A DNA stretch of 63,991 bases, counting the filler, from Basidioascus undulatus (Eukaryota), in NCBI GenBank assembly GCA_000826855.1. It is 5 parts of 5 records of this genome, joined end to end, with 100 filler letters (N's around TTAATTAATTAA, not from the genome) between each part and the next. Parts side by side here need not be neighbours in the genome. Positions count along the whole stretch, not along the records: positions 51,629 to 63,991 come from JTLS01000913.1; 4 more parts are not named here. One strand, written 5' to 3'. Both the position numbers and the translations under genes were made by a program. Below the pieces are notes generated by a model that had not been told where the DNA came from, made no database searches, and was given only the letters and a program-made list of their open reading frames with translations. Shown here one piece after another: positions 5,409-63,991 of the stretch. Numbering within the stretch: position 1 is the stretch's first letter; every line of letters begins with the position of its first letter.

Positions 5409-7874
5409 ATGCTGAACACGAAACTTACCGCCTCACTCGCTTTACCTCTTTTCACTTTCGCCATCGCGCTCCCTTCGCCTTTCTCGTACACTGCCAGGCA
5501 GAGCGGCGACAACGACTGCAAATGCATTCCGGAGGACGCGTGCTGGCCGAAGGGGCAGGAATGGGCCCAGTTCAATCGGACGCTGGGTGGGAAGCTGATC
5601 GCGACGCTTGCGGTGCGCCCCCATTCTATGTATTTTCTTCGCGCGACATCTTGCTGAAGATGTCCGTGGTCGTGGGCGGGTAGCCTGGCGCGGTCTGCCA
5701 CGACCCAACCTTTTCCTCCGACGCATGCGCCGAAGCACAGTCTGCGCTGTACTACAACTCCTACTGGCGGGCGTGCGTTCCTTTCCACGATTCTCCCTCC
5801 TTCCCACAACTTCTACTTCAAACTCTGACCCCCCCACCCCTCTGCTCCTTCGTTTCTGCTCCCGCAGCGCTCAGCCGGGAGCGATGCAATACACAGGCTG
5901 GGAAGCCTTCGACGACCCCGCGTTCTGCTCCGTCAACACGACGCGCGATTCGCGCTGCCCGCAGGGCGACGTCTCGGTCTACACCGTGGCTACTGTGTCG
6001 GCCGAGGACGTCGCGGAGGCGATCAAGTTTGCAAAGGCCGCAAATTTGAAGGTCGCGGTCAAGTCGACGGGGCATGACCAGTATGTTTGTCGCTGTGCAT
6101 GATAATGGGCGCACGCAGTAGAAGGGATATGTTGACGGTTTGCTGTGAAATAGCCAGGGACGCAGCGCCGCCAAGGGCTCATTGACGATCTGGACGCAGC
6201 CAATGAAAAACATGACATTCTCCGAGGCATATTCGCGCGCTGGCGACTGTCCTCGCACCCTGGAAGCCAGTACGCTCACCTCTCCGTTCGGACACTTTCG
6301 TGAGCCCCTACATTACTTACGCCGCCTTGCGCACTTTCAGTCCCAGCGGTATCTGTTGCACCCGGCATCTCGTGGGCCGAGGCGTATGCCTTTACCAACG
6401 ACCACGGGTATGTCCCTGTTGGAGGCGGGGGAACCTCGGTGTCCGCTGCGGGCGGCTATGTGAGTTCTCTCACCTGCCCACTTTCCGCTGTGATTGCTAA
6501 TCCTTCTGATGTATAGGTCGGGGGAGGTGGCCACTCGCCGCTCGGTCCACAGTTTGGAATGTCTGCGGACAATGGTCAGCTCTTCCTTTCCATAAAGCTT
6601 TGACCACCATCCACTGACACTTTCCTCTTGCACACAAATCGTTCCAGTGCTTGAGGTATGCACGTCCAGCTCCGCCTTTCCGTAAAGCTTTCGCGTGACA
6701 CTTTCCGCTTGCACACGAAACGTTCCAGATGGAGGTCGTCACCGCTGACGGCGAAATCAAGATCGCGAACGACTGCTTGAACCAAGACCTCTTCTTGGCT
6801 CTCCGCGGTGGCGGCGGAGGGACTTACGGGGTAGTTACTCGCGTCACGCACCGGTGGGTCTTTCATTCCCTCCTGTCAGCAGACTCGCTTACCCCCCTGC
6901 ATCCCGACAGGCTATACCGCTCGGCTCCCCTCCTATTCGGCTTCTTCAACGCTAACTTCACGTCCGACTCCTCCCTCACGCAGTCCATCATCCGGCGTGC
7001 GAATCGCGCTGTCTTCCCCCTCACCGAATCCGGGTGGTCCGGCTACGCCCGTCTGTATCACCCTAAGGGCCTCTACTACGCCCTGATCAACCCCTCGCTC
7101 AACGCGTCCTTCTCCCCGCTCTCCGACCTCGCTTCTTCCCTCCCGCAGGGCGTCGCTATTGCCACAACCATCCCGTACCCCTCCTTCAACGCGTGGTTCG
7201 CAGACACCATCGGCAAGAACAACGAGACATCTGGGACGCCCACGACCCTCGGCTCGCGGCTCCTCCCTCCCTCCGTGTTCGCCTCGGAGACGGAGGTGGA
7301 TAAGCTTGCCGACGCCTTGTGGGAGGCACGCGACTTCGCACCGATTGTGCACTTCGTCGCGGGCGGGGAGGTTGCGAGGAAGGAGGAGGGATGGAGCGCG
7401 GTGAACCCCGCTTGGAGGAAGGCACTGGCGCAGGTGGTGATCAGCTCGGGATGGGAGGAGGGGGCGGCCAAGGAGGAACAGCGGAAGGCATTCGAGGAAA
7501 TCTCGAGCCTTACCGACAGATTTAGGGAGCTCGCGCCTGACAGCGGAGCGTACACGAACGAGGTAAGCGCGCTGGCGCTCGTTTTTCTTGAGAGTGTTGC
7601 TCATTCAGTACTGGCACTTCCTAGGCGGACTACCTCGAGGTGCGCATCCGCTTCCCCTCCTCTTGACAATCGCGTATCCAGATCCTCCTACGTCCCCAAC
7701 CGACTGAATCTATATGATCGAAATCTACAGCCGGACTGGCAGCAATCCTTCTTCGGTGCGCACTACCCGCGCCTCGCCGAGATCAAGAAGGCAGTCGACC
7801 CCGATGGGCTGTTCTGGTGCCACCACTGCGTGGGGAGCGAGGAGTGGGACGAGGAGGGGACGTGTAGGGTTTGA
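5409..7874 (+). CDS. Secreted FAD-binding berberine-bridge-enzyme (BBE)-like oxidoreductase, multi-exon
   Basis: Signal peptide then CKCIPEDACWP..EW.QFN.TLGGKL; VKSTGHD (FAD-linking His); [45 protein letters not shown]; BBE C-terminus GAYTNEADYLEPDWQQSFFGAHYPRLAEIKKAVDPDGLFWCHHCVGSE. Confidence 0.92.
6575..6728 (+). repeat. Two homologous 73-nt introns (6575-6647, 6656-6728) flanking an 8-nt micro-exon
   Basis: Shared blocks cagctc..cctttcc.taaagcttt and tgacactttcc.cttgcacac.aa.cgttccag. The micro-exon TGCTTGAG restores the conserved [10 protein letters not shown]. Confidence 0.85.
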
Positions 7875-12812: not shown

Positions 12813-12912
12813 NNNNNNNNNNNNNNNNNNNNNNNNNNNNNNNNNNNNNNNNNNNNTTAATTAATTAANNNNNNNNNNNNNNNNNNNNNNNNNNNNNNNN
12901 NNNNNNNNNNNN
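12813..12912. other. Artificial contig spacer (N44-TTAATTAATTAA-N44)
   Basis: Six-frame-stop 12-mer embedded in Ns; identical in form to the three other gaps. Confidence 0.97.
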
Positions 12913-19764: not shown

Positions 19765-21840
19765 TCAGAGCGCCATCGCGGCACCAAGGACCGCAGCGAC
19801 AGCGACGGCGATGCCAGAGCGGACCGCTCGCCCGGTGCTCGCACCGTTGTCACCCGAGGATTTGGAGCCTGCGCCCGTGCCGGTCGAGCTCGCGTCGCCG
19901 ATGGTCGGGCTAGGGACCGAGCCCGTCTCGGTCTGCGTCGCGATCGCCTGGTCCGAGAGCGCAGCGAACCCGACCGCAGCAGGGTTGTAGCGGAAGACGG
20001 TGTAGTAGTTCTTCATGAGGGTGCTGCAAGCACAATGGAGGCGATCAGTCGCTGATTAAGGCATGAGAAGGATCACAAAGGGGGTATAAAACGACACGCA
20101 CTCGCCAATAACCCATTGAATCGATTGGGAGGTCTCAGACGACGCGCCGTCTTCGAGCGCAAAGATCGCGCCCTGGCACCGCCCGTCGTTGAGCGTGTTG
20201 AAGATCAAGTCTTGCGGGTTCACCGCGTACTGCTGGCCGTCGAAAGTGAAGTAGACCTGTGCGCGTGTCATGCACCGATCAGCTGAACCGCTCATGAGCG
20301 CTGGGCCAGGCGGGAAGAAAACCAACCCTTGAGCTCGTGTCGCACGGGTACGTCCAGTACCCCTCAAGCGCTCCAGTGCCCTCCTGCGCGCCGTCAATGG
20401 CAGCGTAGATCTTGGCAACGTCTTCAGACGGCCCGCCGATGAGGGTCGTGCCGCTGTCGATCGCGGCGCCGAGTGTGAAGCTGGGAGTGAAGACGGCGTC
20501 GGAGTCGACTTGGATGGCTGTGTACCACCAAAATTCCAGGTCAGCAGTGCAGCTGGATTCGGATAACATGGATGAAACGGACAGTCAAGTTTGATGCGCC
20601 AGTAGTCCTCGGCAAGCAGGCTGTGGTACGTGATGCCGCCCGTGTACAGCGACGAGTCAAGCTCGCCGAGGGTGAACGTCCCGCCGGGCTCGAGCTGGTT
20701 GCTGTTGTAGATCGGTTGACCACGCATGCGAGTGACTGGCGGATGAGGAGACACACAACTGTCAGTATGCAATGCAGGGCGATGCGTCGACGGGGCAGAG
20801 ATTAGAGCTGGACGGTGGACGCACGGTAGAAGCTCATAGTGTCGTTGGCCGAAATCATGTTCTTCTCCGCAAGGGTTTGCCCTGTGCGAGCGTGACGGGA
20901 ACAGTCAGACGCTGTTGGCGCTGGGGGGGAGGATGGCCAATCGGACTAACAGAACGGCGTAGACTGGTCCGGTGCCAGACGCTCCCATCCGAGACCGAGA
21001 ATCCCAGAGACGGGCGTCGTGATGAGCGGGTCTTGAGCGTCGAACGCAACGTCTGTGAACAGAGGGGCACTATCATGAGCAAGATGATCGACTGCCCCTG
21101 AGAGATGGCATACTCACTAACGGCCGAATCCGTCAACGAGTAGTCTCCGAGCTGCACAGTGTCCGTTCCAGCCCAGCTGTAGACCATGAAATACCAAATC
21201 AGCACCAGCTCCCGGCAGGAAAGCACCGAGGCCAAGCACCGCTACGCACACATAGGTCGTTCCGCTACCGTACGCGAGCTTGTACGACGACGAGGAGTTT
21301 GTCCACGTGCTGCTTGCGCCAACATTGAAACCCTCGCCGACCTCGTATTGAGAGTTTTGGAGGTATGCGGACAGCTCCTGCGAGGTGAGCCAGAGAGTGG
21401 AGCTGCCCGTGTCGAGGATGACTTGGAAAGCCTGCGACGGCGTGCCGACGCCGATGGTCGCGTAATAGGACCTGATTCAGCATTCTCCAGTTCAATAAAC
21501 CCGGCCCGGTTGTCGCATCCAGTAGAACGAAGGGAAGGAAGACGCACGCATCCGTCCCCTGATTGACGATATCAATGACGCTCCGCCTCTCCAAGCTGCG
21601 CTCCTCCACCTTGCGCTTCCCCAGCTTCGTCCCGTACTTCCGCCTGAGCTTACCGCCGACACGACGGAGGACCTCTCGGCGCTCGTGGTCCGTGCGAGCG
21701 TGCACATGGGGATTCCGTCGTGTGAGGGGCAGCGAGAGTGACCTCCTCTGGGATGGAGCGGGCTGTGGCGGGGCGGAGCTCGCTAATGCTGATGCCGTGA
21801 TGGCGAGCGAGAGCGCGAGGAGCGGGAGGGGCGCGTGCAT
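19765..21840 (-). CDS. Pepsin-like (A1) aspartic protease, probably GPI-anchored (yapsin-like), multi-exon
   Basis: Signal peptide and basic propeptide; catalytic motifs VILDTGSSTLWL and AAIDSGTTLIGGP; WVIG..FMKNYYTVFRYNPAAVGFAAL; S/T/G-rich tail with a hydrophobic C-terminus. Confidence 0.93.
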
Positions 21841-25723: not shown

Positions 25724-25823
25724 NNNNNNNNNNNNNNNNNNNNNNNNNNNNNNNNNNNNNNNNNNNNTTAATTAATTAANNNNNNNNNNNNNNNNNNNNN
25801 NNNNNNNNNNNNNNNNNNNNNNN
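25724..25823. other. Artificial contig spacer
   Basis: N44-TTAATTAATTAA-N44. Confidence 0.97.
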
Positions 25824-38632: not shown

Positions 38633-38732
38633 NNNNNNNNNNNNNNNNNNNNNNNNNNNNNNNNNNNNNNNNNNNNTTAATTAATTAANNNNNNNNNNNN
38701 NNNNNNNNNNNNNNNNNNNNNNNNNNNNNNNN
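38633..38732. other. Artificial contig spacer
   Basis: N44-TTAATTAATTAA-N44. Confidence 0.97.
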
Positions 38733-51528: not shown

Positions 51529-51628
51529 NNNNNNNNNNNNNNNNNNNNNNNNNNNNNNNNNNNNNNNNNNNNTTAATTAATTAANNNNNNNNNNNNNNNN
51601 NNNNNNNNNNNNNNNNNNNNNNNNNNNN
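51529..51628. other. Artificial contig spacer
   Basis: N44-TTAATTAATTAA-N44. Confidence 0.97.
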
Positions 51629-51702
51629 GCTGATCTACCTTGTTCCTCTTTCATCCACCCACAACATCCTCTCACCCCTGACACAACTCCCTCCCCACCC
51701 AG

Positions 51703-54700
51703 CACCAACGCCGAACTAGCGCACGATTACTTCCTCCTGCGCCTGCTGCAGGGCGAGATCCCGTGGCAGGAGCTAGACGAGAGCGAAATCATCCGCCGAA
51801 TATGTTCGTCCACTCCCCTCTGTCCCCTCCCTCCTCCACTGCCCCACTTACCCACCTCGTTCTGTCCCTCGTGAACGGAAGCAGTCTGGCCTACTCCCGA
51901 AGACAAAGCGGCGCTCGTGGCGGTGCGGGAGAAGTTTACGGACAACGCGGATTTGTAGTGGGTTGATTTTCGCGTTGACTGTCCCGGGTTTTAATTTTTT
52001 AATTTTTTGTGAGGCCAACTTAGTGATGGATGGGGGGGGACAGCACCGGGACGATGAAGCTCAACGACTCGCAGCGCCAGGCAGCGGGGACGCTCCTCTC
52101 GCCCGAGCCGCGCATCGTGCTCATCCAGGGCCCACCGGGGACGGGCAAGACGCGCTGCATCGCCGCGGCCGTGCACGAGCTTGTGGAGTTTGGGCAGACG
52201 GCGTGGCTTTGCTGCCAGAGCAACATCGGTCGGTCCGCCCTCCTGAGATGAGGAGGTGGGATGGGAAATTGACAATGTGTGGGTGTGGGCGGGTGGGTTG
52301 CGAAGGCACGCTCAACATTGCTACCGCGTTGCTTAAGAACGGGTTTACGAACTTCAAGCTGCTTGTGTCGAAGGACTTTGGGTTCGAGTGGTGCGTAGTT
52401 TTTCCCTCCCTACCCCCCTTCCTCCGTCCCATCTTCCTTCCACATACCAGGCAGAGTTGCTGAGATGCGCTGAGGGTGATGGGTAAAGGCACGAGCACCT
52501 CTATGAGCAGATGCGCGAGAACGTCATCCGCTCGGACGAGCTGCCCCAGAGCCCGTTCCTGACGGAGGACATCCTCGCCGGCACGCCGATCATCCTCTGC
52601 ACGCTGTCGATGCTGTCTAGCCCGGCGCTTGAGGAGCGAGGGGTGTTCCAGGTGCGTGCCGCTCTTCGCACAAGCTTTTCCCCGGCGGTCGAGCTGAATT
52701 GGGGACGAACAGGTCGTCCCCGTCCGGACGCTCATCGTCGACGAGGCGTCGCAGATCCCGACGGGGGAATATCTTGTGCGTTTTCCTTACACCCTACATT
52801 GATCCATTTCCATGTAGCTGACGAGGAAGCAACCAACCCGCAGCACCTGTTCCACCGTCTCCGGGACACGCTCCAAAAAGTCGCGTTCTTCGGTGACCCG
52901 AAGCAGCTAGGCCCGTACGGGTCCGAACAAGTCAAGGAGCTCGAGAGCGTCTACACCGCTGCTTGGCTTCGGCCCTCGGTCGTCTTCCTCAATACTTCTT
53001 GTACGTGCGCTTTTGTTCGGATGTGGTTGGTGGATGTTTGGGGCTGATGTGAAAGAGGAGCGCAGATCGGCTGCCGCTTCCGATTGCTGAATGGCTTAGC
53101 GAGGTGCGTTTGAGCTTCGGCTGCAGGGATAGGCTGTGATGGGGTTGCTGATAACGGGATTGCTGATAACTACATCTGCTCGGCAGGCGATATATAATGC
53201 AAGTTTGGCCTGTGGTTTTGAGACAGATGGGCAGGGACGGATGCGCTAATGCGTCGTCGGTGGGCTCGCAGGGCAAGTTGAAAGCCGACCACCCGATCAG
53301 CGACCCGTCTTGTTGCGCCTTCGTGGATGTGGACAAGTCGTCTGAGAGCAAGCAGGGCACGTCTTGGAGGGTGTGTTGCGTATCCAACCATCTTGTCGAC
53401 ATCGGTTCGCTGACATGATAATGTCCAGAACCTGGAGGAAGAGAATACGTGCGCCTGTGTACTTCCGGAACGAAGGTTGTTCAGTGCTCACGCGAGGGAT
53501 GGGCGGCCGCAGGATCGTCAACCTCGTCCGGAACTACTACAGGCATCGCAACTTCGTGATTGTGTCGTAAGTGTTCCCCTGCTGATGCAAGAACATAGTA
53601 TGCTGAACGTGTCGGTCGGTCTTGCAGCCCTTACGACAGTCAGCGCAACTCGATCGAGGGCGCACTTAGACGCGCGGGCCTGCCGTACGAGGGGCGGGTG
53701 TTCAACCTCGACAGCTATCAGGGCAACGAGTGCGATTATATCTTGATCAGGTTCGTGCTTCCCCATAATCAGCTAATCAGCTGTGGCTGACGAAAGCGGT
53801 GTGGGATGGAAATGGGAACAGTCTTGTCCGCACGACTCGACCGGGGTTCTTGATCCATGACAATCGCATGAATGTGATGTGCGTGCAAAGTTGTGAAGGA
53901 AGTTTGAGATAGAGAAATGGGAGCTGATTTAGGTGGCCGTCCAGGTTGTCGCGTGCGACGAAGGGGATGGTCATTGTTTCGCAGGTAAGCCGGGCGCATT
54001 GTTCTCGGAAGACAGCCGCTGACTTGGGATTTGATCTACAGCGCAAGTACCTTAAGGTCCGTTGCGCTTCGGGTGTCGCTGTTGCACGCCACTGAGATGG
54101 CTGATGATTTGTTCAGACTGGAGGTCTCGCCCTGGTGGCGAAGATGGCGAACTACTGGGAGAAGAAGCGTCCTTGGGTGAGCGGCGTTCTCGAGCGTCGA
54201 AGCCGGATGCGGATGCTTAATGATGGAAAATGGACAGGTGGACTGGAGAGACACCGCCAATGGCTATGTGGACCTGCCTGGCTGCCCCGCTCCCAACCCG
54301 CGCGAGGTAAGCCACCGAATCACGCGTCCAGCGCTGGCGGCGTTGCTGACGAATCACCGCCGCTTTGTCGCTTTGCAGCGCCCCGCCAGCCCTGTGGTCA
54401 GCATCCGCTCCTCGCCAACATCGCGTCCCGGCTCTGCGCTCGGCTACGCGGCCGCGCCCGTCGCGTCAAGCTCGAAGGCGCCCATGAACGGCAATAGCGT
54501 TTGGGGCGGCGCGGACAAGGGCCACAAGGCCAAGGTCTCGGTCGCTTCGAACGTCGTCCATACCTGGCAGCTGTCCGAAGCGGCCGCGAAGAAGGTAAAC
54601 CGCTTCGCTTCTGCGCTTGTCGATCTGCGGGCGCTGACATGTTTCTCGATGGTACACAACAGCAAGCCGCTCGCGATACTAAAGCTGCCGCCGCAGCTGT

Positions 54701-57666
54701 CGCAGCGGCGGCACAGCCAAAAAGTGGGCGATTTCTTTTTGAAAGCCTTCGCGCATGGCCATAATGCTGATGCCAATTCAAAATGCTAGACGTCATCTGT
54801 CCTCAGTTCATCGAGCACGGCCAGCGCGGGACAAAGAATTGCAAGACGCTCCATACCAAGCGGTCCGAGAAGCCTGTCATCTCCCACAAAAGCAAGCTCT
54901 ATCGCAGTGTGTGCTTTTCGGACGTTTAGTCAGGCGCCGACGGCTGCTGACCAGGCTCATCGCATCCGAGCCGAGCAGCCAAGCCTTGCAAGTGCGTACT
55001 GTGCTGCAACCGCAGGAAATCGCTGCTGGACGTCCGATGTCTAAGCTGTTTTCTGCCCCTCCCAGGTTCTTCGCCAAAGGCAACTGCGTCGCCGGCGACG
55101 CCTGCAGCTTTCTCCACGACGAAGCGCCGCCGAAAGTGCCCCGCGTCCCGGTCGCGCCCGAGATGGTGCAGCCTCGTCGCGCCGAGACGCCCGTCCAGGG
55201 TCTCCCCACGCCGCTCCCGTCCGAGCCACCCTCGCCGGTGAAGCAGTACGCGCACGTTCAACAGCAGCAGCAGCAGCAGCAGCAGCCCGCCAAGGTTGGC
55301 GCGTCGCGCTACGACGCTTTGGAGTACGACCACACGTCCGAGGCGGCTTCTTCAGCCGACTATGAGAGCTCGCAGACGGAGGATGTGCGTATCGCCTGCG
55401 AGTTTTTTCTTACGCACGTACGAAAAGCTGATTGAACGCTGTCAATAGTCCGTAGAGCTGAGTCCCACGGCAGTGCAGCTCGACATCAACGCGCCGCTGC
55501 TCCTGCCCCGGCTCGAGGAGGAGCTCGCCGCGATCGGCGAGCGCTACTACGCCTCGAACGGCGCGCCAAGCTCGAAAGCAGAGCTGCTCGAATTCGTCGT
55601 CTACCACCTTTTTGAGAACTCCAAGGACTCGCTCGACGCGCTCGAGAGCCTCGCTGCGCGCTACCCGCAGCCGCTCGCGAAGCACATCGACGACCCCATG
55701 TTTGGCGGCTGGCCGCCCTTGTTTTGGGCGATCGTCTGGTGCGTTGGCGCTGTTGTTTTCTGAACTCTCGTGTCGTGCTAATGAACGTGTTTCCGCAGGA
55801 ACGAGCCCGGCTTCAAGCTTGTAGAGTTTTGTCTTCGGAACGGCGCCGACGTCAACGCGACGGGCCCGCACGGCATCCCCGCTTTGGCGTTCAGCATCCT
55901 CCACCATCACTCGTTCGAAAATGTTCGTTGCTGCGCAGCTTGTGGAACACACGCGCTTGCTGAACCCCCTCCCCTTCCCCCCTCCACATCGACAGAGCGT
56001 CATGACCAAGTTTCTTCTCCTCGCCGGCGCCGATCCATTCAGTATCCCCGCTTCCGTCCTCACGCCCGTGGCGGAGCTCGACCAGCCACTGATCCCTATC
56101 ACTCCGGCTTCGTCGTGGTGTACTCAGCCCTGGCAAGCGAAGCTCAAGGAGAGCATGAGCACCTACATCCAGTACGCGCGCGCTGTCCCCCCACTCAACG
56201 GCATCTCACGCGCCTGATGTTCCCGTACGCAGATACATCATCTACAAGGCGTGCGCTCGTCCCGCCCCAACGCTCCGGCAGGCCAAGGTCCTTCAGGCTT
56301 CGGGGCTGGCGAAGTTGCCCAAGGCCATGTCAGTATTTGTCGGCGGCGACACGGCGTACGACGCCATGCTGGACGCCGTCGTCGCACATCGCTTGAACCC
56401 GGACGTGCGTCCGCTCATCCTCGCTTTCACTGGTAAGCGCGGCGTTGTGCTTGGTCTCATGAGAGGCCGTCCTGAATAATCGTTTGCTTGAACAGGTCAA
56501 CGCTCGCACGGCAAGCGGCGTCTGGCGCACAACTGTAAATTTCCTGAACCCAGCGATCGGTCTGGTGAGGTACCATTACTGACTTGACCGACGCAGTGGG
56601 CACCGTGCTGGACATTCCCCTGCTCGCCATCGATCTCGTCAACGCGCAGCACGAGAATTCTCTCTTCGGCCAGACTGCGTCGGGAGAGGTGTGTCGTCAA
56701 CGTGTTGAGATCAAACTCCTTCCATCTCTAACTGCCCGACCGGCGGCTACAGGGCATGGCGCTCAACGACTTTCTGCAGAGCAACGCGGGAAAGCAGGCG
56801 CTGGTGTTCCTGGACGAGCCCAGGAAGCTGAAGGGCAGCCTGCGTTTGGTCGTGAGTCCGACATTGTCATATTTTCACTTATACGTGCTGACCTGTTTTC
56901 CTCACCTCTCCAGGACATCCTCTCTCAGATCGCGCAGGGCAGCTTCACCGACAAGCGCGTCGGACCAGTGGACGTCTCGTCTATCATCTGGATCGTTGGC
57001 ACGGAAGCGGGATCGTCTACGATTGGTGCGCTTCTCGTTTCCTCCTTACTGGTGAGAGCGTGCTGATTCGTCCATGGCTCCGATTAGGCACATACATGGA
57101 GAAGCACCCGGAGCGGTTCGTCGGAGGTCGCGCACTCGCGAGAGGTCTGCAGCGCTTGCAAGAGTGAGTCGTCTGTGTGCCTGTACGTAAGGGCTATGTA
57201 GGCTGATGCGAGGAGCGCGATGCAGGCTTATCATCAAGAAGAACCTAAAGAAGCTCGGGGTAAGCGTCAACTGGTTCCTGGCTTTCGGTGGGGTGCTATG
57301 CCTAATTTTTTTTTAATTCCGCAGGACGCCATCCCGACCTACGTGACAGCCGTCGTTCCCTTCCTGCCCTTCACTCTCCCGGAAGCCGCCGCGCTCGCAT
57401 CGCAGGAGCTGCTCAGGCTCAAGCGGCAGCTCATCAGCATCATCGACGCCGAGTCGCTGGCCGAGCAAGAGCTCTTCACGATCCAGGACGAGTACGAGCT
57501 CGCGCGCTGGCTGGCGCGTAAGTACAGCCCCGAGCGCGGGGCTGAGAGCGTCTGCGAGGCTGCGGAGCAGTGGGTGGAGAACCCAGTCCGCATTCCGGGC
57601 CCGGGGGCGAAGAAGACGGAGGAGGAGGTGCAGTGGACGGCGGTGAAGAAGGGGGGGAGGGCCTAA
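51703..57666 (+). CDS. Multidomain fusion: Upf1/DNA2/NAM7-like SF1 helicase + 2x CCCH zinc finger + polyQ + ankyrin-like repeats + degenerate ClpB-NBD2-like AAA+ domain (5' end lost in gap)
   Basis: Helicase motifs LNDSQ, QGPPGTGKT, IVDEASQ, FGDPKQLGP, LNTSYR, SPYDSQ, DSYQGNE, RMNVMLSRA. Fingers CPQFIEHGQRGTKNCKTLH and LYRTKPCKFFAKGNCVAGDACSFLH. Ankyrin-like GWPPLFWAI..LVEFCLRNGADVNA and GIPALAFSI..KFLLLAGADP. AAA+ PLILAFTGQRSHGKR, LVFLDE, VVPFLPF, YSPERGAE. About 33 short introns keep a single frame. Confidence 0.8.
55259..55285 (+). repeat. CAA(CAG)8 microsatellite encoding Q9
   Basis: caacagcagcagcagcagcagcagcag in the linker of the helicase fusion gene. Confidence 0.9.
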
Positions 57667-57792
57667 GGGCGTTGCTAGGTTCGAATACGGTGGAGCCGGA
57701 CCAGGTTTCGCGTATGCGCAGTTTGGTTACAAACTAGGCGATATGCAGACTATGCGACCCAACCAAGCGACACGTACCGAGGATGCACGCCA

Positions 57793-58560
57793 TTAATCCC
57801 GCTTGACAACCCACCCATCTCCCTCCAGCACGTCTAGCGCCCCCTTGAGAGCTGCTTCCTTGACCAGCACGAAGTCGGTGTCCCTATCCGAACATATGTC
57901 CACATGAGCGACGAGCAGGCAGGTGGCGCTCGCAAGCGGAGGCAAGAGAACGGACCATGTGGATATCACGAACACCGAGACTTCGCCTCGGGCGAGCGTG
58001 CCGCTCAGTTCAGCTATGATGCCCACTACCGAGAACTCAAACGGCCTGGTTTAAGGAGTGCAGCGGTCAACGCTTCTGTCGCATCCCAATGCATCTCATG
58101 GAGCGCCTTGCTTACCCCTGTACTTTCAGAGCCCGCCACGGCCCCTCAGGCCCGCTTATGCCCTCCCCCTCCAACGGCAGATCATCCGACGGGTTGCTCA
58201 AGACTACCGAGATCTCAGCAGCATTGCGCGTTATGGAGTAGAATTCTGGACTCGGCGTAGTGGAGAGGCGCGAGAGAAGGCTTAGAGGGAAAGGTGAGCG
58301 TGCTCGGGCGGCTACGCGAGGAGTCGGGATTAAGTATGAGTCGAACCTCATACAGTGCCTGCAAAACGGTTGTGCACTGTTTGTGTACTGCAATATGTGA
58401 TGGTGGTACGGAGAAGGAGAGGGCTGTGTCGATAACGACTGGAAAGAGGAACGAGCCGAGGCAGTGCGCGAGTTGCTGAGCAAGACAGCCTGATAACCGA
58501 TAACAACGCTGTGCAGTACGCAAACACACTTTGTTGTGTCGATAAGAATTGCAGTGCCAT
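57793..58560 (-). CDS. Small ACT-domain protein (CASTOR/GATS, ACT_7-like), multi-exon
   Basis: EFYSITRNAAEISVV; EGPWRALKVQG|PFEFSVVGIIAELSGTLARGEVSVFVISTW|DTDFVLVKE. The start at 58560 is tentative. Confidence 0.85.
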
Positions 58561-60010
58561 ATAATGCCTGTTGAAACAAGAAAGTAGTAAGAAGAAAAGG
58601 TGAGGAGAAACAGCTGCATGCAACGACGCAATCCATCCAACTTCAAGCACAGAACACCACCGAATTCTGCACTGCGACAGTAACTACCACGTCCGACCTT
58701 CGGAAAGTGCTAATGCATACAACGGCACAACGTCCGAAAAATAATGGTGAGTATGCTGCTGCCTCTTGCTGCTGCCTCTGGCATTTATGCTCTGTATCCT
58801 CCGCATGACCGCAGCACCCTCTCGCTGCCTTCCTCCTTCCGAGCCCCCCTGATGCTTCTCCTTATCTCGCCCTGAACTGGTGAACACGCACTTGAAGACT
58901 GCCTCGCAGTGTTCCAAATCACCCGCTGCGTCGGAAGACCTCCTCCAGCCGGGCCTCTTCTCCGCAGCAGCACAGCTCGCCGCGCACTCCTCTCATGCAG
59001 CGCAACCCTTCTCAATCCGACCTCGATACCGGTGGTACGTCTCTCTTTTCCTTCCCTTGACTGCAGGAATTCACAGAAGGAAAGTATTCCCACTAAGGAG
59101 GACCGCCTACGGAGCGCCAGAGCGCCCTCTTCGTATCTCCGCAGCCGTGGCAGCTGCCCGAGCGTTCGTCCCCCATCCTCCCATTTCCCACTCCAACCTA
59201 GTCTGCCAAATATTAAAATCCACATCCAAAAGGGCTTATCCTCGTGCATGCCCTCTCCATGACCCTAAACTACCTAGTCCTCCCCCATCGCAGTGCTCGT
59301 ACCGCGCTACACGAGGCATCGATGGGGTGCGCCGTTCCTTTTCTCTCCTACCTTTGGAAAATGCCTGCTCAAATGTGGTATCAGAAATGCAAGGTGCGGG
59401 TGATACTCGATGGCTATCAGGGAAGAGTTGCGCACTGACCTGGATGCGAAAGTACAGGCTTGGCTGCGACAACCTGTTCGGGATTTGAAAGGGGCTCTGG
59501 CTGGCTGTTCAGTTGGCAGCGCAATACAGCACGGTTTGAGGAAGACTACAGGCCCGTAACAGCTTGGAACCCCGGGCTATATATTATGGGAAGCTGCTCC
59601 GAGGTAGAAGCGGAAGTGCACGCACATGCGTTGCAGCAGCTGTCTTGAGCTGTCTGCTTCGCCAACCACCAATGCCACAAAGGATACCAGCTGATCACAT
59701 TACAGATCTTGTGATCAACCATTATACATATTCCGGCCTCTGTGAGTGACTTTGCGTGTACGTAGGGACCCCTTCTGCCCCGACTTACGGCAGGACGCCA
59801 CCGCCGCCTCTTCGACCTGCTGAACCTGTTCAGCGAGCGCTCACTCTTGCTTTGTCAGAGTAGCAGTTAGACGTGTGTCGTCCTTATTCACGTCGGATCA
59901 CGGTGCTGGAAGATAATCGCGTTCATGAGTTCTCGGACCCTCTGAAATGGCAATTGTGAGACCGCTCTTCACAATCCCTTTCATCTACGGACCCATAACT
60001 TGCCGGAGGA

Positions 60011-60880
60011 ATGACCTACGCTGAATCGCAACGCTTAGGACGGCAAAGTGGCCATCGTTACCTGTGAGCCACTGGCCGCATGGATTCTCGACGGGACTGC
60101 GAGACTGACTGTCCGATGAATCAGGGGGTAGCGGCGACGGCTTCGGCGCGGCCATCACCAAACGCTTTGTTTAGGTTGGTGCAAAGGTGGTCGTCATTGA
60201 CATCAATTCTAACAAGGGCAAAGCAATCGCTGCAACGAGCCCCAACATCGCATTCCTTCACGGCGAGGTGACGAAGGCCGATACGTGGACGGAAGCAGTA
60301 GAACTCGCTCACAAACAGTTTGGCGGCTTTCACATTGTTGTAAACAGCGCTGGTATGTGTGGCCATGCAATCGTAACCCTCGCCGATCGAGACTAACCAG
60401 AAGCGCGGGCTGTCAGTCCACGGCGCACATACGAGCCCAAGGTAAGCGCGGCTGATTTTTGTGTCTTTCGTCACAAACAAACGAGCGATCTGATATAGGT
60501 TTGCTTTCAGAAAGTACATGAGCTGCCTATGGCTCTGTATGACAAGGTGTTCGAGCTCAACTTTCGGGTGCGTGTATTTATGTTTATTCACGTTCATCCC
60601 CAGCCATTGGTCTGATTGCTGTTTTCAGCCGGTTCTCCTGAGTGTGCAAACTCTCGCACCTTCCATCCTCAAAGATGGCGACGGAAACTTTGTCAGCATC
60701 TCAAGGTGAGCTTGGCCCGTCTCGCCCACCGCACGCGATGAAAGAGTTGACGGGACTCTGTAGCACTGGGTACACACGCCCCAGGGCCGGCTTTGCGTTC
60801 TACAAGCTATTTCAACAGGTTTTTGGTGATTCTTTCTTCTGATTCGAAGTACAACAGTGCTTCGAAAGCGGCTGTGACGG
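60011..60880 (+). pseudogene. Short-chain dehydrogenase/reductase (FabG/TsaC-like) pseudogene
   Basis: RL/DGKVAIVT needs a 1-nt frameshift near 60038. GSGDGFGAAITKRFV* carries TAG at 60172-60174. Also KVVVIDIN, HIVVNSAG, RPRAGFAFY and YNSASKAAV. The C-terminal part is not recognisable. Confidence 0.8.
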
Positions 60881-61755
60881 TATGCTTTTTAGCTACGTGT
60901 TTGACACATCAACTCGGCTCATCATGCGCAAATGATTCCCGTCTAATGAGTGTTCGAGGTCTGCAATGACTCCAGCACCAGCGTGCCAGTCACCAACTGT
61001 TCTGTGAGCGGGCTTCCCTACCAAAACTTCCCCCGTATTTTCCGCGCCATCATGAAGTGGAAAACCGAGGAAAATGTAACTCTGAGCATCTAAGTGTATG
61101 TTCGTGCGCTGGAGTTGCGGCGCTCAGTGGACTGTCAGCGATGCCAGCCTGCAGAGTCCGCAGATCGTCTTTAGCGTCCTGTCGTCCTCCCCACCCCCCC
61201 TGAACCACTGTGGAAATTTTTCTTCAGATTTCAATTCTGTTCTATGCTTTCCGGCCATGGGACTGTGTCGGTCAGTCCCTTTCTGTGACGCTGTGCAGCT
61301 CTGCACGGCTGCTGAAGTCGATGCCAGATAGGTGCAATACTTTTTCTTGCTTGAACTTTTGACCAAGTCAAAGAGCACACCTGAACATTATACATTCTCC
61401 CGCCTCTAGTGCAACACTGCGACTCTCAGCGCGTGTGTTTTCCGAAACAACTACACCGATCTTACCATGCTATCCTCAATTATATATATCCTTCTCGCGG
61501 AAAGTACCCCGTCATGATCGCGGCGCTATTCCGAGGACTCAACAGTCACACGACTTTGCGCGACACTCTGTAGGTACATAAAAGGCGATTGGTTGCAAGT
61601 TGACCGACCGGAAGTCGGATGTTCTGGCGTCGGGCCGGTTGCCCTAGAGCCTGGCAGCTGGACGTTGCTGGGCAAGACAGGTAAAGGATCACCGTCAACC
61701 AGTTTCGCTCGTTCTTCGTTGTTTACTATTTCGTCCTTGCTGAATCTCAGGGGCA

Positions 61756-62830
61756 CTTTCAAACCCGCCATAGCGAGCGTCAGCCTCGGCCGCGCCTCCG
61801 CTGGCCACTCGCTCGACAGCAAGCCCGTCGCTGCAGCCGGGCTGGGTTCACAGGCATCGAGATCTTCTACGAATGTTTCGAGGCCTTCAGCAACACTCTT
61901 CACCACCGCTGGGCGCCTCGTCGCCGCCGCCCGGCAAGTCGCCGCTCGGTGCAGTGAGCTCCCTCTCCAGGTCGTTTGATTCCAGCCCTTCGCCGACTAC
62001 GGCGGCCTGGTCGATCGGGCAAAGCACGCCGAGCCCCTCAAGGACGCGAAGCTTTGGTTCGAACTCGCGACGATCCTCAAGGCGGAGGCGATTAAGGTCC
62101 CGGCAACCTTCCGCGTATGCGTCTGAGTTTTCGGCGGACAAGTCGCTCATTGCCGCAGACTTGCGCGAGCGTGCGCCTTGCCGCGCCGCACGGCTTCCGG
62201 CTTGCGTACGAGCAGACTGTGAGTTTTTCTTAATTCTATTATTTTTTGGCTACATCTGGTTTCTAAACACTCTCCCAGGCTTGGAGTACGCACGTCGACT
62301 GGTGGAAACCCGCGTACGAGATCATCCTCCTGGTGGACAGACCCAACTTCGGCATGGACACGTTCCACATTCGCCGGACGCGAGTACGATGACCCGACAA
62401 TCGAGTCCGGCCTTCCCGCCGCACCGGATGCCTTCGAGCGCAGCATGCGCGAGACGACGGCGACCCTTCGGGTGGAGGACATCATCTACTTCCAGCTCTC
62501 CGACGCGAGCCTCGTCGCCCCTCCCCTCCCGCACCACCCGCTGTACGACCAGTTCCGGGTGTTCTCGTTCGAGGAGCCTGAGCACGGCGGCTACCTCCCG
62601 TTGGACTTGACGAGCAAGGCGGTGCTCGACACCGGCTACACCGGCTGGCTCAGCATGGAGATCTTCAATGCGTCTCTTTACGAAACGTACGTGCGCCCCG
62701 TATTTTTATTCTTCAGAACATTAAGGGGCTTATCCCAGTGGAGGTTTGGACGGGTAGCGACCCCAATGTGCCGCGCGAGCACGCACAGCGGGGAATGAGG
62801 TCGTTCCGTGAAGTCTGTAGCCGATTCGGA
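61756..62830 (+). pseudogene. Xylose-isomerase-like TIM barrel (AP_endonuc_2; 3-dehydroshikimate dehydratase-like) pseudogene
   Basis: FKPAIASVSLGRASAGHSL; GFTGIEIFYE (shifted frame); LQVV*FQPFADYGGL; AWSTHVDWW..LVDRPNFG.DTFHI; IIYFQLSDA; GYTGWLSMEIF. Several frameshifts and a stop. Confidence 0.8.
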
Positions 62831-63991
62831 TCGACAGCGGGGCGTGACGACAGCAGATTAACAATGTATTCACATTGGGTCGTACATGAGTAATTACCGA
62901 GTGTTGCTTGATTCGGGCCAAACAGTCAAGCAACGTCCAGTCGTCATCGTGGATGGAATCATAACACAATCCAAGCAAGAAAATGCGACCTCCCATTGAC
63001 AAAGTATCGCACAGTCCCCTTCGTATATGGCAGTCACAGTCAACAAGAAACGCTCGACTTCTGCATCCTGAAAATGACGGCAGCACACGCTCGGCTGCCA
63101 GCCTCCTTCATCGGCCCTCCTTCCCGATCCCCGAGCTTTTTCTTGATCTTCCCCCAGGATTTGGACAAGATTCCCCAACTATACACTCTCTGCAAACCAG
63201 ATTCTAGAACTCTATCCGCGTCTTCCCAGTTTCCCAAGTGCAGCAGGTCAGCCTCCAAGATCATGCAGCGCAAAGAGAAGGTCCAGGCCATCCTCATTGT
63301 GGCCGATACATCTGAGGTCCCAGAGGGGTTTACACTTTCAAAGTTTTTGGGACTGATGGGAAGCACCCCGAAAGGAAAAGGCGGATCGCCTCCCTTGGGC
63401 CTGCCCGCGGTCCTCTTCATGTCCCCGCAGCCGTGGCAACTCCCCAAACGTGCGTGCTCACCTCACATTGGCCACTCTGATCCGAACCCTCAAGCCATCA
63501 GGACTGATCCTCGTCCACGCCCTCTCCAGAGCCCTCGGCTGGCTGGTCCTCGCCCCCATCGCCATCCTCATTCCACGCTGCCACCGCTACATGCGACACC
63601 GCTGGGATGCGCCGTTTCGCTTCATTACGTTCTCAGACGCTCTTTAAAACAGCGGCCTGTTTGATTAGTAAGTGGATGGTTCAGGTTGCACAGAAACACC
63701 CACCTGTGCGGGACGCTCGTCCTCGTCTTGTATGGTTTCTCATGCGCCGTCGCTGGGGTGCAGCTTAGCAATCCGGCGGGGCATTTTGTTCGGACGCACC
63801 AAGTGCATCGTCGCTTTCCCTTTAGCTCCAAGGAAGCAGGGCGGTTGATTATTTTGGATCGTGCCATATGTGAAGCGCATCGGCCTCGCACTCGTCATCC
63901 TCCTCCTGCTCCAGATCGCCCTAGAGCACTTCGCGCACCTCTCGCGCGCCCGCTAACGACACATTACCTTCATGCCACAGCTACTTCTCCT

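Follow-up and report, generated by a model that had tools for sequence, protein, structure and literature searches.

On one contig of Basidioascus undulatus (GCA_000826855.1), we found an Upf1-like SF1 helicase, a disordered linker, a CCCH zinc finger, a run of nine glutamines, ankyrin repeats and a degenerate ClpB-NBD2-type domain encoded in that order along one frame. These modules are real, and their order, their common strand and the absence of a spacer between them are observed directly. That they are covalently fused, as one co-oriented transcription unit with at least one mRNA form carrying a single frame of ~1,240 aa or more (its N-terminus missing), is a reading that we put forward tentatively, as almost an even call. 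The first-pass annotation had presented the locus as a single gene; its open frame, strand and order held up, as did most of its module assignments, and the fusion itself is not established, resting on an ambiguous stretch at 54595-54806 (Table 1).

The window, that is, the whole 63,991-nt stretch of DNA analysed, comprises five contigs (~12.8 kb each) joined by four identical spacers, each a 12-base linker with stops in all frames, flanked by 44 N on either side. What had been described as a 51.5 kb gap is one of these contig joins, and the N-terminus of the helicase is cut off by the contig end (JTLS01000913.1, from 51629). A switch from non-coding-looking sequence at 51629-51703 (-0.59 bits per codon, GC3 0.44) to coding-looking sequence at 51704-51802 (+0.36 bits per codon, GC3 0.79), with a branch-like site and CAG directly upstream, confirms 51703 as an exon start. 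From there, a 33-intron model built from coordinates on the plus strand gives a single stop-free frame of ~1,240 aa to a stop at 57664-57666, in agreement with the earlier estimate of an unbroken spliced frame of more than about 1,200 aa ending at 57666. Its introns (32 GT-AG and one GC-AG, the latter at 53199-53271) measure 57-98 nt, with a median of 65, and GT...AG ends are present at all six previously proposed linker introns. Two other splice choices were discarded: a 32-nt intron in the AAA part (56565-56596), which was too short and was replaced by 56535-56596 (62 nt), and an acceptor at 53932, in frame like the acceptor at 53944 that was preferred for yielding a better motif VI. The intron and codon style of the locus looks fungal. 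No coding signal was detected in the ~4 kb downstream of the final stop, so the locus is not unusually compact. No paralogues were found in the other four contigs of the window, Rfam gave no match anywhere in the window, and 15 long ORFs from other parts of it gave only BBE and Asp matches with Pfam.

Table 1 Features of the helicase-CCCH-ankyrin-AAA+ locus, in coordinates of the window.
Feature	Position	Strand	Evidence
Contig-join spacer	51529..51628	.	Same spacer at 12813, 25724, 38633 and 51529
Intron 3' end, truncated by contig start	51629..51702	+	Branch-like site and CAG before 51703; negative coding score
Upf1-like SF1B helicase, 18 exons, N-terminus missing	51703..54306	+	Spliced model, Pfam, matches to solved chains
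72-nt intron candidate, in frame, stop-free	54307..54378	+	PWM 17.9 bits; unspliced frame also open
Linker exon, 72 codons, Ser/Ala/Pro-rich, extending the helicase frame	54379..54594	+	Coding score
Junction zone, 212 nt	54595..54806	+	Introns 54595-54662 and 54724-54789 with bridging exon 54663-54723, or a single intron
ATG/stop overlap	54783..54789	+	ATG 54783-85 (three A upstream) overlaps TAG 54787-89
Exon with CCCH-like motif, second Cys replaced by Gln	54790..54906 (54807 start with better acceptor)	+	Translation, coding score
Complete C-x7-C-x5-C-x3-H finger, 9-Gln run, acidic low-complexity stretch	54979..55384	+	Spliced translation
Helical region, then about two ankyrin repeats; three exons	55449..56171	+	Matches to consensus ankyrin and DARPins
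Degenerate ClpB-NBD2-type AAA+ domain and C-terminal small domain, nine exons	56233..57666	+	Stop 57664-57666

Motif I (Walker A) and motif II (DExx) mark an N-terminal RecA domain in the helicase half, and motifs III, V and VI are also readable in the spliced translation, which includes exons as short as 12 nt (53187-53198), 15 nt and 20 nt. The initial assignment to the Upf1-like SF1 helicases was upheld by a Pfam AAA_11 match on exon 52045-52227 (41 bits, cut-off 27, profile positions 1-62) and by alignment of UPF1, SMUBP-2 and NAM7 chains along the full length of the same exon (residues 3-60). A second, weak AAA_11 piece lay at 183-211, and AAA_12 reached 19 bits (cut-off 27) with a single 40-aa exon as the query, motifs V and VI being readable after splicing. 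All helicase exons of at least 30 nt from 51885 onward scored as coding in frame. With its ATPase and translocation motifs intact, the helicase would be predicted to act as an active 5'-3' RNA or single-stranded DNA translocase.

Downstream of the linker, one complete CCCH finger was recovered where the first-pass annotation had described several. This finger is split between a 13-nt exon carrying the first Cys (54979-54991) and exon 55066-55384, and its four ligands take up canonical spacing only once introns 54907-54978 and 54992-55065 are removed; the three-ligand part that lies in a single exon scored 23.1 bits with zf_CCCH_4 (cut-off 29) and 16.4 bits with zf-CCCH (cut-off 20.5). The motif upstream of it, in a coding-looking exon (54790-54906; +0.32 bits per codon, GC3 0.79), has the right spacing, a Gln at the second Cys position and no Pfam match, and so does not make a second complete finger in tandem. 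An unspliced ORF at 54743-55435 was rejected as the finger exon, lacking the first Cys and showing no coding signal across 54875-55040. The polyQ tract noted earlier is a run of nine Gln in exon 55066-55384 (CAG repeat at 55262-55286), situated after the finger and before the acidic stretch. The CCCH finger would be expected to contribute single-stranded RNA binding.

The ankyrin assignment was likewise sustained, with exon 55800-55922 matching many DARPins as well as 3q9n, a consensus ankyrin repeat (E 1e-13). Exon 55996-56169 gave a weak match to designed repeat proteins (E 0.03), Pfam Ank_4 reached 15.7 bits, under its cut-off of 22.7, and about two repeats were counted by reading; these repeats would supply a protein-binding surface.

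The C-terminal domain had been called ClpB/Skd3-like, and our analyses support a ClpB-NBD2-type AAA+ domain and argue against a Skd3-like function. Residues 970-1239 of the model align collinearly with E. coli ClpB 571-829 (24% identity, Smith-Waterman score 100), with z values of 10.2-12.5, a level that no shuffled sequence attained (0 of 500 and 0 of 300); the corresponding comparisons gave 8.8 for ClpA D2, 1.8 for ClpX, 2.3 for Lon and 0.1 for ClpB NBD1. Pfam AAA_2 and ClpB_D2-small gave no match at E <=1 in six AAA exon pieces. With motif positions checked in the E. coli ClpB sequence, the Walker A Lys (K611) and the Walker B Asp-Glu (D677/E678) are retained, and five of the eight AAA+ landmark residues are lost: the Walker A Thr (T612) aligns with Arg, the pore-loop Tyr (Y653, in GYVG) with Gly 1043, the sensor-1 N719 with Glu, the Arg finger R756 with Tyr and the sensor-2 R815 with Glu (in this pairwise alignment at 24% identity, single columns may be a few residues off). 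With these five residues missing, the domain would probably be unable to thread polypeptides; it may more plausibly be an oligomerisation module, either nucleotide-binding or purely structural, through which helicase or RNA-binding arms are clustered.

Homologues were sought with individual exons as queries. Word-index searches against longer targets gave 1,843 candidates for exon 57325-57663, 770 for exon 55449-55736 and 10 for exon 52844-52999, of which none scored, and an exhaustive phmmer search with the last exon as query, covering 1,835,955,588 representatives, returned no matches at E <=0.001. Three loci returned by a metagenome scan were rejected as relatives: in local tblastn, two of the matches centred on one short shared motif, and the third was weak, at 31% identity over a stretch with that motif at its end. 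A phmmer search of the PDB with exons 56234-56431, 57325-57663 and 55449-55736 returned nothing relevant. Single-sequence AlphaFold2 models of the last exon (pLDDT 56.7) and of a 96-aa exon (54.1) were of low confidence and were disregarded, and Foldseek with the last-exon model gave no match at E <=0.001. The helicase-CCCH-ankyrin-ClpB architecture was not found in the literature search.

At the junction between the two halves, the helicase frame continues past ~54290 without a stop, as originally reported. The intron candidate at 54307-54378 does not decide the frame, since it is itself in frame and free of stops, and the linker exon that follows is coding-looking in the helicase frame (+0.39 bits per codon, GC3 0.85; -0.52 and -0.18 in the other frames). 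The next 212 nt (54595-54806) form the sole stretch of the model without a coding signature, with a GC content of 0.54 compared with 0.55 for introns, and the coding signal is back by ~54785-54800. Relative to 27 other introns scored leave-one-out (6.4-27.2 bits, median 18.1), five of the six linker introns are within range (14.4-18.6 bits), which counts for fusion; on the opposite strand, only 9 of 1,164 candidate introns reach 15 bits. The sixth, 54724-54789, scores 8.2 bits, with -2.7 bits for its acceptor at 54789. The bridging exon that it delimits (54663-54723) scores below zero for coding in its frame (-0.21 bits per codon; GC3 0.40, against 0.58-0.93 for other exons), as does no other exon of 30 nt or more except the piece at the contig start.

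Splicing of this zone would join the helicase to the CCCH-ankyrin-AAA part in one frame, and it could be achieved in many ways. Among 406 candidate introns enumerated within it, the 15 best in-frame, stop-free paths of one or two introns scored 63.8-68.8 bits; the pair chosen in the first-pass annotation was not among them, and at least 15 other in-frame paths scored equal to or above it. An open path across the zone is therefore expected by chance, and the path taken earlier is not confirmed as evidence for one gene. Of the short introns, the two with the highest scores (54595-54662 and 54724-54806) would together remove 151 nt, by their lengths, and thus shift out of the CCCH frame, 151 not being a multiple of three. 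Taken as a single intron, the zone scores 18.3 bits, close to the median for the other 27 introns, and links its flanking exons in frame, both at phase 0 (1,238 codons counted from 51629, compared with 1,264 on the same count for a model using the original pair); at 212 nt it would be more than twice as long as the longest other intron of the model and would cost the CCCH-like motif its first Cys. More generally, in GC-rich, intron-dense genomes a hand-spliced open path over 200 bases is to be expected by chance, so such a path alone cannot show gene fusion.

In favour of fusion, the helicase frame passes the end of the core without a stop into a coding-like 72-codon exon reaching 54594, the junction zone resembles introns in composition and, taken as one intron, in score, and the locus leaves no room for a terminator, a promoter and two UTRs. 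HELZ, ZNFX1 and IGHMBP2, which combine a helicase with zinc fingers, provide functional precedent. The principal competing explanation, a serious one that we nonetheless consider somewhat doubtful, is that two same-strand genes abut here and that the fusion was created artificially by splicing by hand with an open frame as the aim. The first would encode the helicase with a disordered tail to TAG 54787-89 (631 aa from 51629, ~25 of them intronic, N-terminus missing) and the second, from ATG 54783, a 679-aa CCCH-polyQ-ankyrin-degenerate ClpB-NBD2 protein, either from a transcription start site inside the 3' end of the first gene or from a read-through transcript in which it is the second ORF. 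The stop of the unspliced helicase frame and an ATG in A-rich context fall exactly at the junction, this start leaves the first motif with its CCCH-like spacing complete at 19 residues, and both the poor bridging exon and acceptor and the many chance paths speak the same way; the ATG alone is weak evidence, however, as 15 of the 33 exons have an in-frame ATG upstream. Pfam gave no match on the exon opened by ATG 54783 and none above threshold on the unspliced tail of the helicase, where a DUF6615 hit (E 0.1) fell short of it. Read in the helicase frame, the zone hints at translation as far as TAG 54787-89, scoring -0.09 bits per codon, above 97.5% of intron blocks (-0.53 and -0.48 in the other, non-coding-looking frames), but this value also lies below all 200 held-out coding blocks (minimum 0.03). 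Scanning ribosomes translate an ORF downstream of a long ORF poorly, and the second ORF would lie behind a helicase ORF of more than 1.9 kb. Read-through multi-ORF transcripts involve 7.9% of the loci transcribed in one basidiomycete, yet Agaricomycete polycistronic units have a mean of 364 nt between ORFs (both PMC4503453), whereas the two unspliced frames here overlap by 7 nt, leaving no intervening sequence in which a 3' end could form and a promoter lie.

We regard as quite improbable a further explanation, in which the junction is an assembly artefact (a spacer lost from a short-read contig) or the locus is a decaying gene or pseudogene. The fragmented assembly, with contigs of ~12.8 kb, the loss of five of eight AAA+ landmarks and one finger ligand, and the three exons for which no homologue was found would fit such an origin. 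Against it, 33 introns and ~1,240 codons contain no frame break or stop, GC3 of the ankyrin and AAA exons (0.71-0.91) is as high as in the helicase, where decay would erode both GC3 and the open frame, and no repeat or break in composition marks a misjoin at 54.6-54.8 kb.

The covalent fusion, oligomerisation and any role in surveillance or antiviral defence are inferred. The locus may hold a fungal-type, independent combination of ankyrin repeats with a single ClpB NBD2 (the Skd3 layout) in which the residues for threading and hydrolysis are lost and which is joined to a CCCH finger and, by fusion or at zero spacing, to an Upf1-like helicase, thereby acting as a pseudo-AAA+ oligomerisation hub for a multivalent RNA-helicase machine in RNA surveillance or genome defence; we think this composite proposal rather unlikely. 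If the fusion is true, an Upf1-type helicase would carry a ClpB-derived ring-forming domain, which would suggest a route to oligomerising an SF1 helicase, normally monomeric. Even without fusion, the CCCH-ankyrin-ClpB-NBD2 frame presents a Skd3-like layout outside the lineage of its presumed origin, with the motor residues gone, and may thus exemplify both convergent domain shuffling and a pseudo-ATPase scaffold.

Among known systems, UPF1, IGHMBP2/SMUBP-2, HELZ, ZNFX1 and MOV10 share with the locus helicase motifs of the AAA_11 and, probably, the AAA_12 type and a zinc finger adjoining the helicase; here the CCCH finger is C-terminal to the helicase only if the halves are fused, and we know of none of these proteins with ankyrin repeats or a ClpB-type domain. 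Agaricomycete read-through units resemble the locus in that two sizeable same-strand ORFs may share a transcript, and differ in the distance between ORFs, as described above (PMC4503453). Likeness to the HCLR-clade proteins, ClpB/Hsp78/Hsp104 NBD2 and ClpA D2, is collinear over the whole NBD2 and small domain, whereas NBD1, a middle domain and an N-domain are absent here and catalytic and substrate-contact residues are lost. The closest layout is that of Skd3/human CLPB (ANKCLP), with ankyrin repeats N-terminal to a single ClpB-NBD2-type AAA+ domain and then a small domain. Skd3 has four ankyrin repeats, compared with only about two recognisable here; an N-terminal mitochondrial presequence would not be possible in the fused reading, and the two-gene reading places the CCCH-like motif immediately after the start. 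The GYVG pore-loop Tyr is essential for Skd3 disaggregase activity (PMC7343390) and is Gly here, alongside the other replaced AAA+ residues. ANKCLP is reported to have originated in stem holozoans (PMC4339202), in contrast to the fungal-looking intron and codon style of this locus. The Skd3 likeness of the ankyrin-AAA part stands whichever way the helicase junction resolves.

The window is a string of separate, size-sorted contigs, not a single molecule: four identical spacers (see table) divide it into pieces of 12,812, 12,811, 12,809 and 12,796 bases, followed by 51629-63991, so features are not to be read across them. What the first-pass annotation had described as a 51.5 kb gap before the helicase is a contig end, the spacer at 51529 being identical to the three other joins; the sequence upstream is therefore unrelated and the helicase N-terminus is missing from the contig. 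The opening 25 codons of this contig resemble intron sequence (-0.59 bits/codon, GC3 0.44) and have a branch-like site and CAG at their end, which bears out the proposed exon start at 51703. Two other contigs have open frames with recognisable domains, consistent with a fungal-type genome: the frame at 6699-7871 (+) has the end of a berberine-bridge (BBE) domain (E = 1e-9), and that at 20056-20901 (-) a partial eukaryotic aspartyl protease domain (E = 2.5e-7).

Splice sites were placed by hand along the sequence and splicing was done by coordinates, giving 33 introns (32 GT-AG and one GC-AG; 57-98 nt, median 65) and a stop-free frame up to TAA 57664-57666. The introns follow a short GT(G/A)NGT...CTRAY...CAG pattern and GC3 of the locus is high, a combination that we take to be basidiomycete-like. 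A splice previously implied at 56565 was discarded, as it would leave a 32-nt intron; its replacement (56535-56596, 62 nt, GTAAAT donor) kept the frame and improved the ClpB match. Exons of 12, 13, 15 and 20 nt (at 53187, 54979, 54042 and 53429) each complete a motif typical of the family, be it the first finger Cys, the helicase C-terminal helix or the helicase motif after IV; of the 33 introns, only the GC-AG one after the 12-nt exon has a donor other than GT. Two in-frame acceptors 12 nt apart, 53932 and 53944 (53931-53944), may form an alternative 3' splice site, the distal one giving the better helicase motif VI. With a codon table derived from the helicase and Ank/AAA exons, and intron composition as the background, in-frame coding scores were positive for all exons of at least 30 nt except the contig-start piece and exon 54663-54723; the claimed unbroken frame to 57666 thus stands as a stop-free model, but one of its exons scores as non-coding. 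Scored with the same codon table, the region after the final stop (57667-61900) is nearly devoid of coding signal on both strands. Pfam matched none of three long ORFs in it, and a small 13-nt tandem repeat at 58754-58779 is the only one present. It may represent non-coding sequence, decayed mobile DNA or a gene whose codon usage differs.

The Upf1-like helicase was confirmed by a Pfam AAA_11 match on exon 52045-52227 (41 bits; cut-off 27), residues 3-60 of which are matched by UPF1, SMUBP-2 and NAM7; on later exons, at collinear profile positions, lie a further piece of AAA_11 and one of AAA_12, the latter below cut-off at 19 bits. CCCH fingers had been proposed in the plural: one complete C-x7-C-x5-C-x3-H finger is built by splicing across the 13-nt exon (its single-exon part lies under Pfam thresholds), but an upstream CCCH-like motif of the same 19-residue spacing has Gln for the second Cys. 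A CAG repeat (55262-55286) encodes a run of nine Gln. The ankyrin repeats were upheld by exon 55800-55922, which hits chains of consensus ankyrin and DARPin type (3q9n among them, E = 1e-13); designed repeat proteins give weak matches to the exon after it. With intron 55385-55448 scoring 18.6 bits and coding signal on both its flanks, there is good support for the CCCH-ankyrin-AAA part as a single frame.

No AAA+ exon piece searched matched Pfam AAA_2, and single AAA+ exons returned nothing relevant from the PDB; since the single pieces gave no match, the spliced domain was compared locally with E. coli proteins. The alignment of residues 970-1239 of the 33-intron model's protein with ClpB 571-829 extends over the full length of both (24% identity, pairwise E = 2e-5), with a Smith-Waterman score against NBD2 of 100 (z = 12.5 and 10.2; none of 500 and none of 300 shuffles equalled it), compared with z = 8.8 for ClpA D2, 2.3 for Lon, 1.8 for ClpX and 0.1 for ClpB NBD1, which bears out the NBD2 identity first suggested. 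By this alignment, the AAA+ domain is a degenerate ClpB NBD2.

Spacers, split helicase motif and ClpB landmarks, the latter checked in the E. coli sequence and mapped pairwise at 24% identity, so that any one column may be shifted by a few residues; ClpB roles are as we presume them to be
Feature	Window coordinates	Observation	Presumed role in ClpB
Spacer (44 N, 12-base linker stopping all six frames, 44 N), four identical copies	12813-12912, 25724-25823, 38633-38732, 51529-51628		
12-nt exon, then GC-AG intron 53199-53271 (GCAAGT donor)	53187-53271	Restores conserved helicase motif	
ClpB K611		Lys in AAA+ domain	Walker A Lys
ClpB T612		Arg in AAA+ domain	Walker A Thr
ClpB Y653		Gly in AAA+ domain	Pore loop
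ClpB D677/E678		Asp-Glu in AAA+ domain	Walker B
ClpB N719		Glu in AAA+ domain	Sensor-1
ClpB R756		Tyr in AAA+ domain	Arg finger
ClpB R815		Glu in AAA+ domain	Sensor-2

Because landmark residues are replaced, and local segments of the aligned domain hold no substitute Tyr, Asn or Arg for the lost roles, we conclude that the domain would not be an active threading motor. Disaggregase activity of Skd3 is reported to require the equivalent pore-loop Tyr (PMC7343390). The suggested RNA-sensing oligomeric role is possible via scaffolding only, not threading.

The modules, their order and their close linkage are real; whether the helicase is joined to the rest depends on the route through a junction zone, 54595-54806. 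The helicase frame runs beyond its core, through a 72-nt in-frame intron candidate, into an exon of 72 codons (54379-54594) whose coding signature is complete (+0.39 bits/codon, GC3 0.85), and coding signal resumes at about 54785-54800; the zone between has a GC content of 0.54 (introns, 0.55). As proof of fusion, the linker route of the first-pass annotation failed: against a leave-one-out range of 6.4 to 27.2 bits (median 18.1) for 27 other introns, its intron 54595-54662 is acceptable (15.7 bits), but 54724-54789 is poor (8.2 bits, acceptor -2.7) and, in the frame that the route needs, the bridging exon 54663-54723 has the look of non-coding sequence (GC3 0.40, -0.21 bits/codon). The zone holds 406 candidate introns, and the pair is not among the 15 best open in-frame paths; with so many such paths, an open route is expected by chance. 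A single 212-nt intron, 54595-54806, would be a simpler reading: it scores 18.3 bits and joins phase 0 to phase 0 in frame (1,238 codons, counting from where the contig begins), but has over twice the length of every other modelled intron and takes out the first Cys of the degenerate CCCH-like motif. The single-gene claim survives in its modules, order and tight linkage; the covalent join we put at slightly under an even chance.

Two abutting genes, with the unspliced helicase frame ending at TAG 54787-89 and a second, 679-aa CCCH-ankyrin-AAA frame opening at ATG 54783 (three A before it), are likewise simpler than the linker route and a serious contender, if one we would sooner bet against. 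In the helicase frame the zone scores -0.09 bits/codon, above 97.5% of intron blocks and above its other two frames (-0.53 and -0.48), yet lower than all 200 held-out coding blocks; and the ATG is weak evidence, given an in-frame upstream ATG at 15 of the 33 exons. The 7-nt frame overlap, moreover, leaves no space for 3'-end formation and a promoter in a locus that is not unusually compact (about 4 kb after the final stop is without coding signal), whereas, even in polycistronic units of one basidiomycete, the mean distance between ORFs is 364 nt (PMC4503453). An artefact or decay of the locus seems improbable, and intron retention making both fused and separate forms real is speculation.

Word-index searches with three single exons ('longer' lengths only) found no relative, and exhaustive phmmer with the last exon (113 aa) as query, run against 1.84 billion representatives, gave no match; three metagenome loci were rejected as chance motif matches. 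Structure predictions for individual exons came out at low confidence and were set aside. These empty searches mean that the collections hold no close relative of the searched exons, and are not proof of a unique architecture; the literature searched held nothing relevant on a helicase, CCCH, ankyrin and ClpB-type combination. The nearest functional analogues are, we presume, the helicase-plus-finger proteins HELZ, ZNFX1 and IGHMBP2. The Skd3/CLPB architecture once proposed applies to the layout, ankyrin followed by a single NBD2, which the locus protein has in common with Skd3/ANKCLP, but not to the functional features, as the pore loop, sensors and Arg finger are replaced. Skd3/ANKCLP is reported to make its first appearance in choanoflagellates (PMC7343390), and its origin is reported to lie in the stem-holozoan lineage (PMC4339202). 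We treat the predicted locus protein as Skd3-like in layout, and not as a member of Skd3/ANKCLP.
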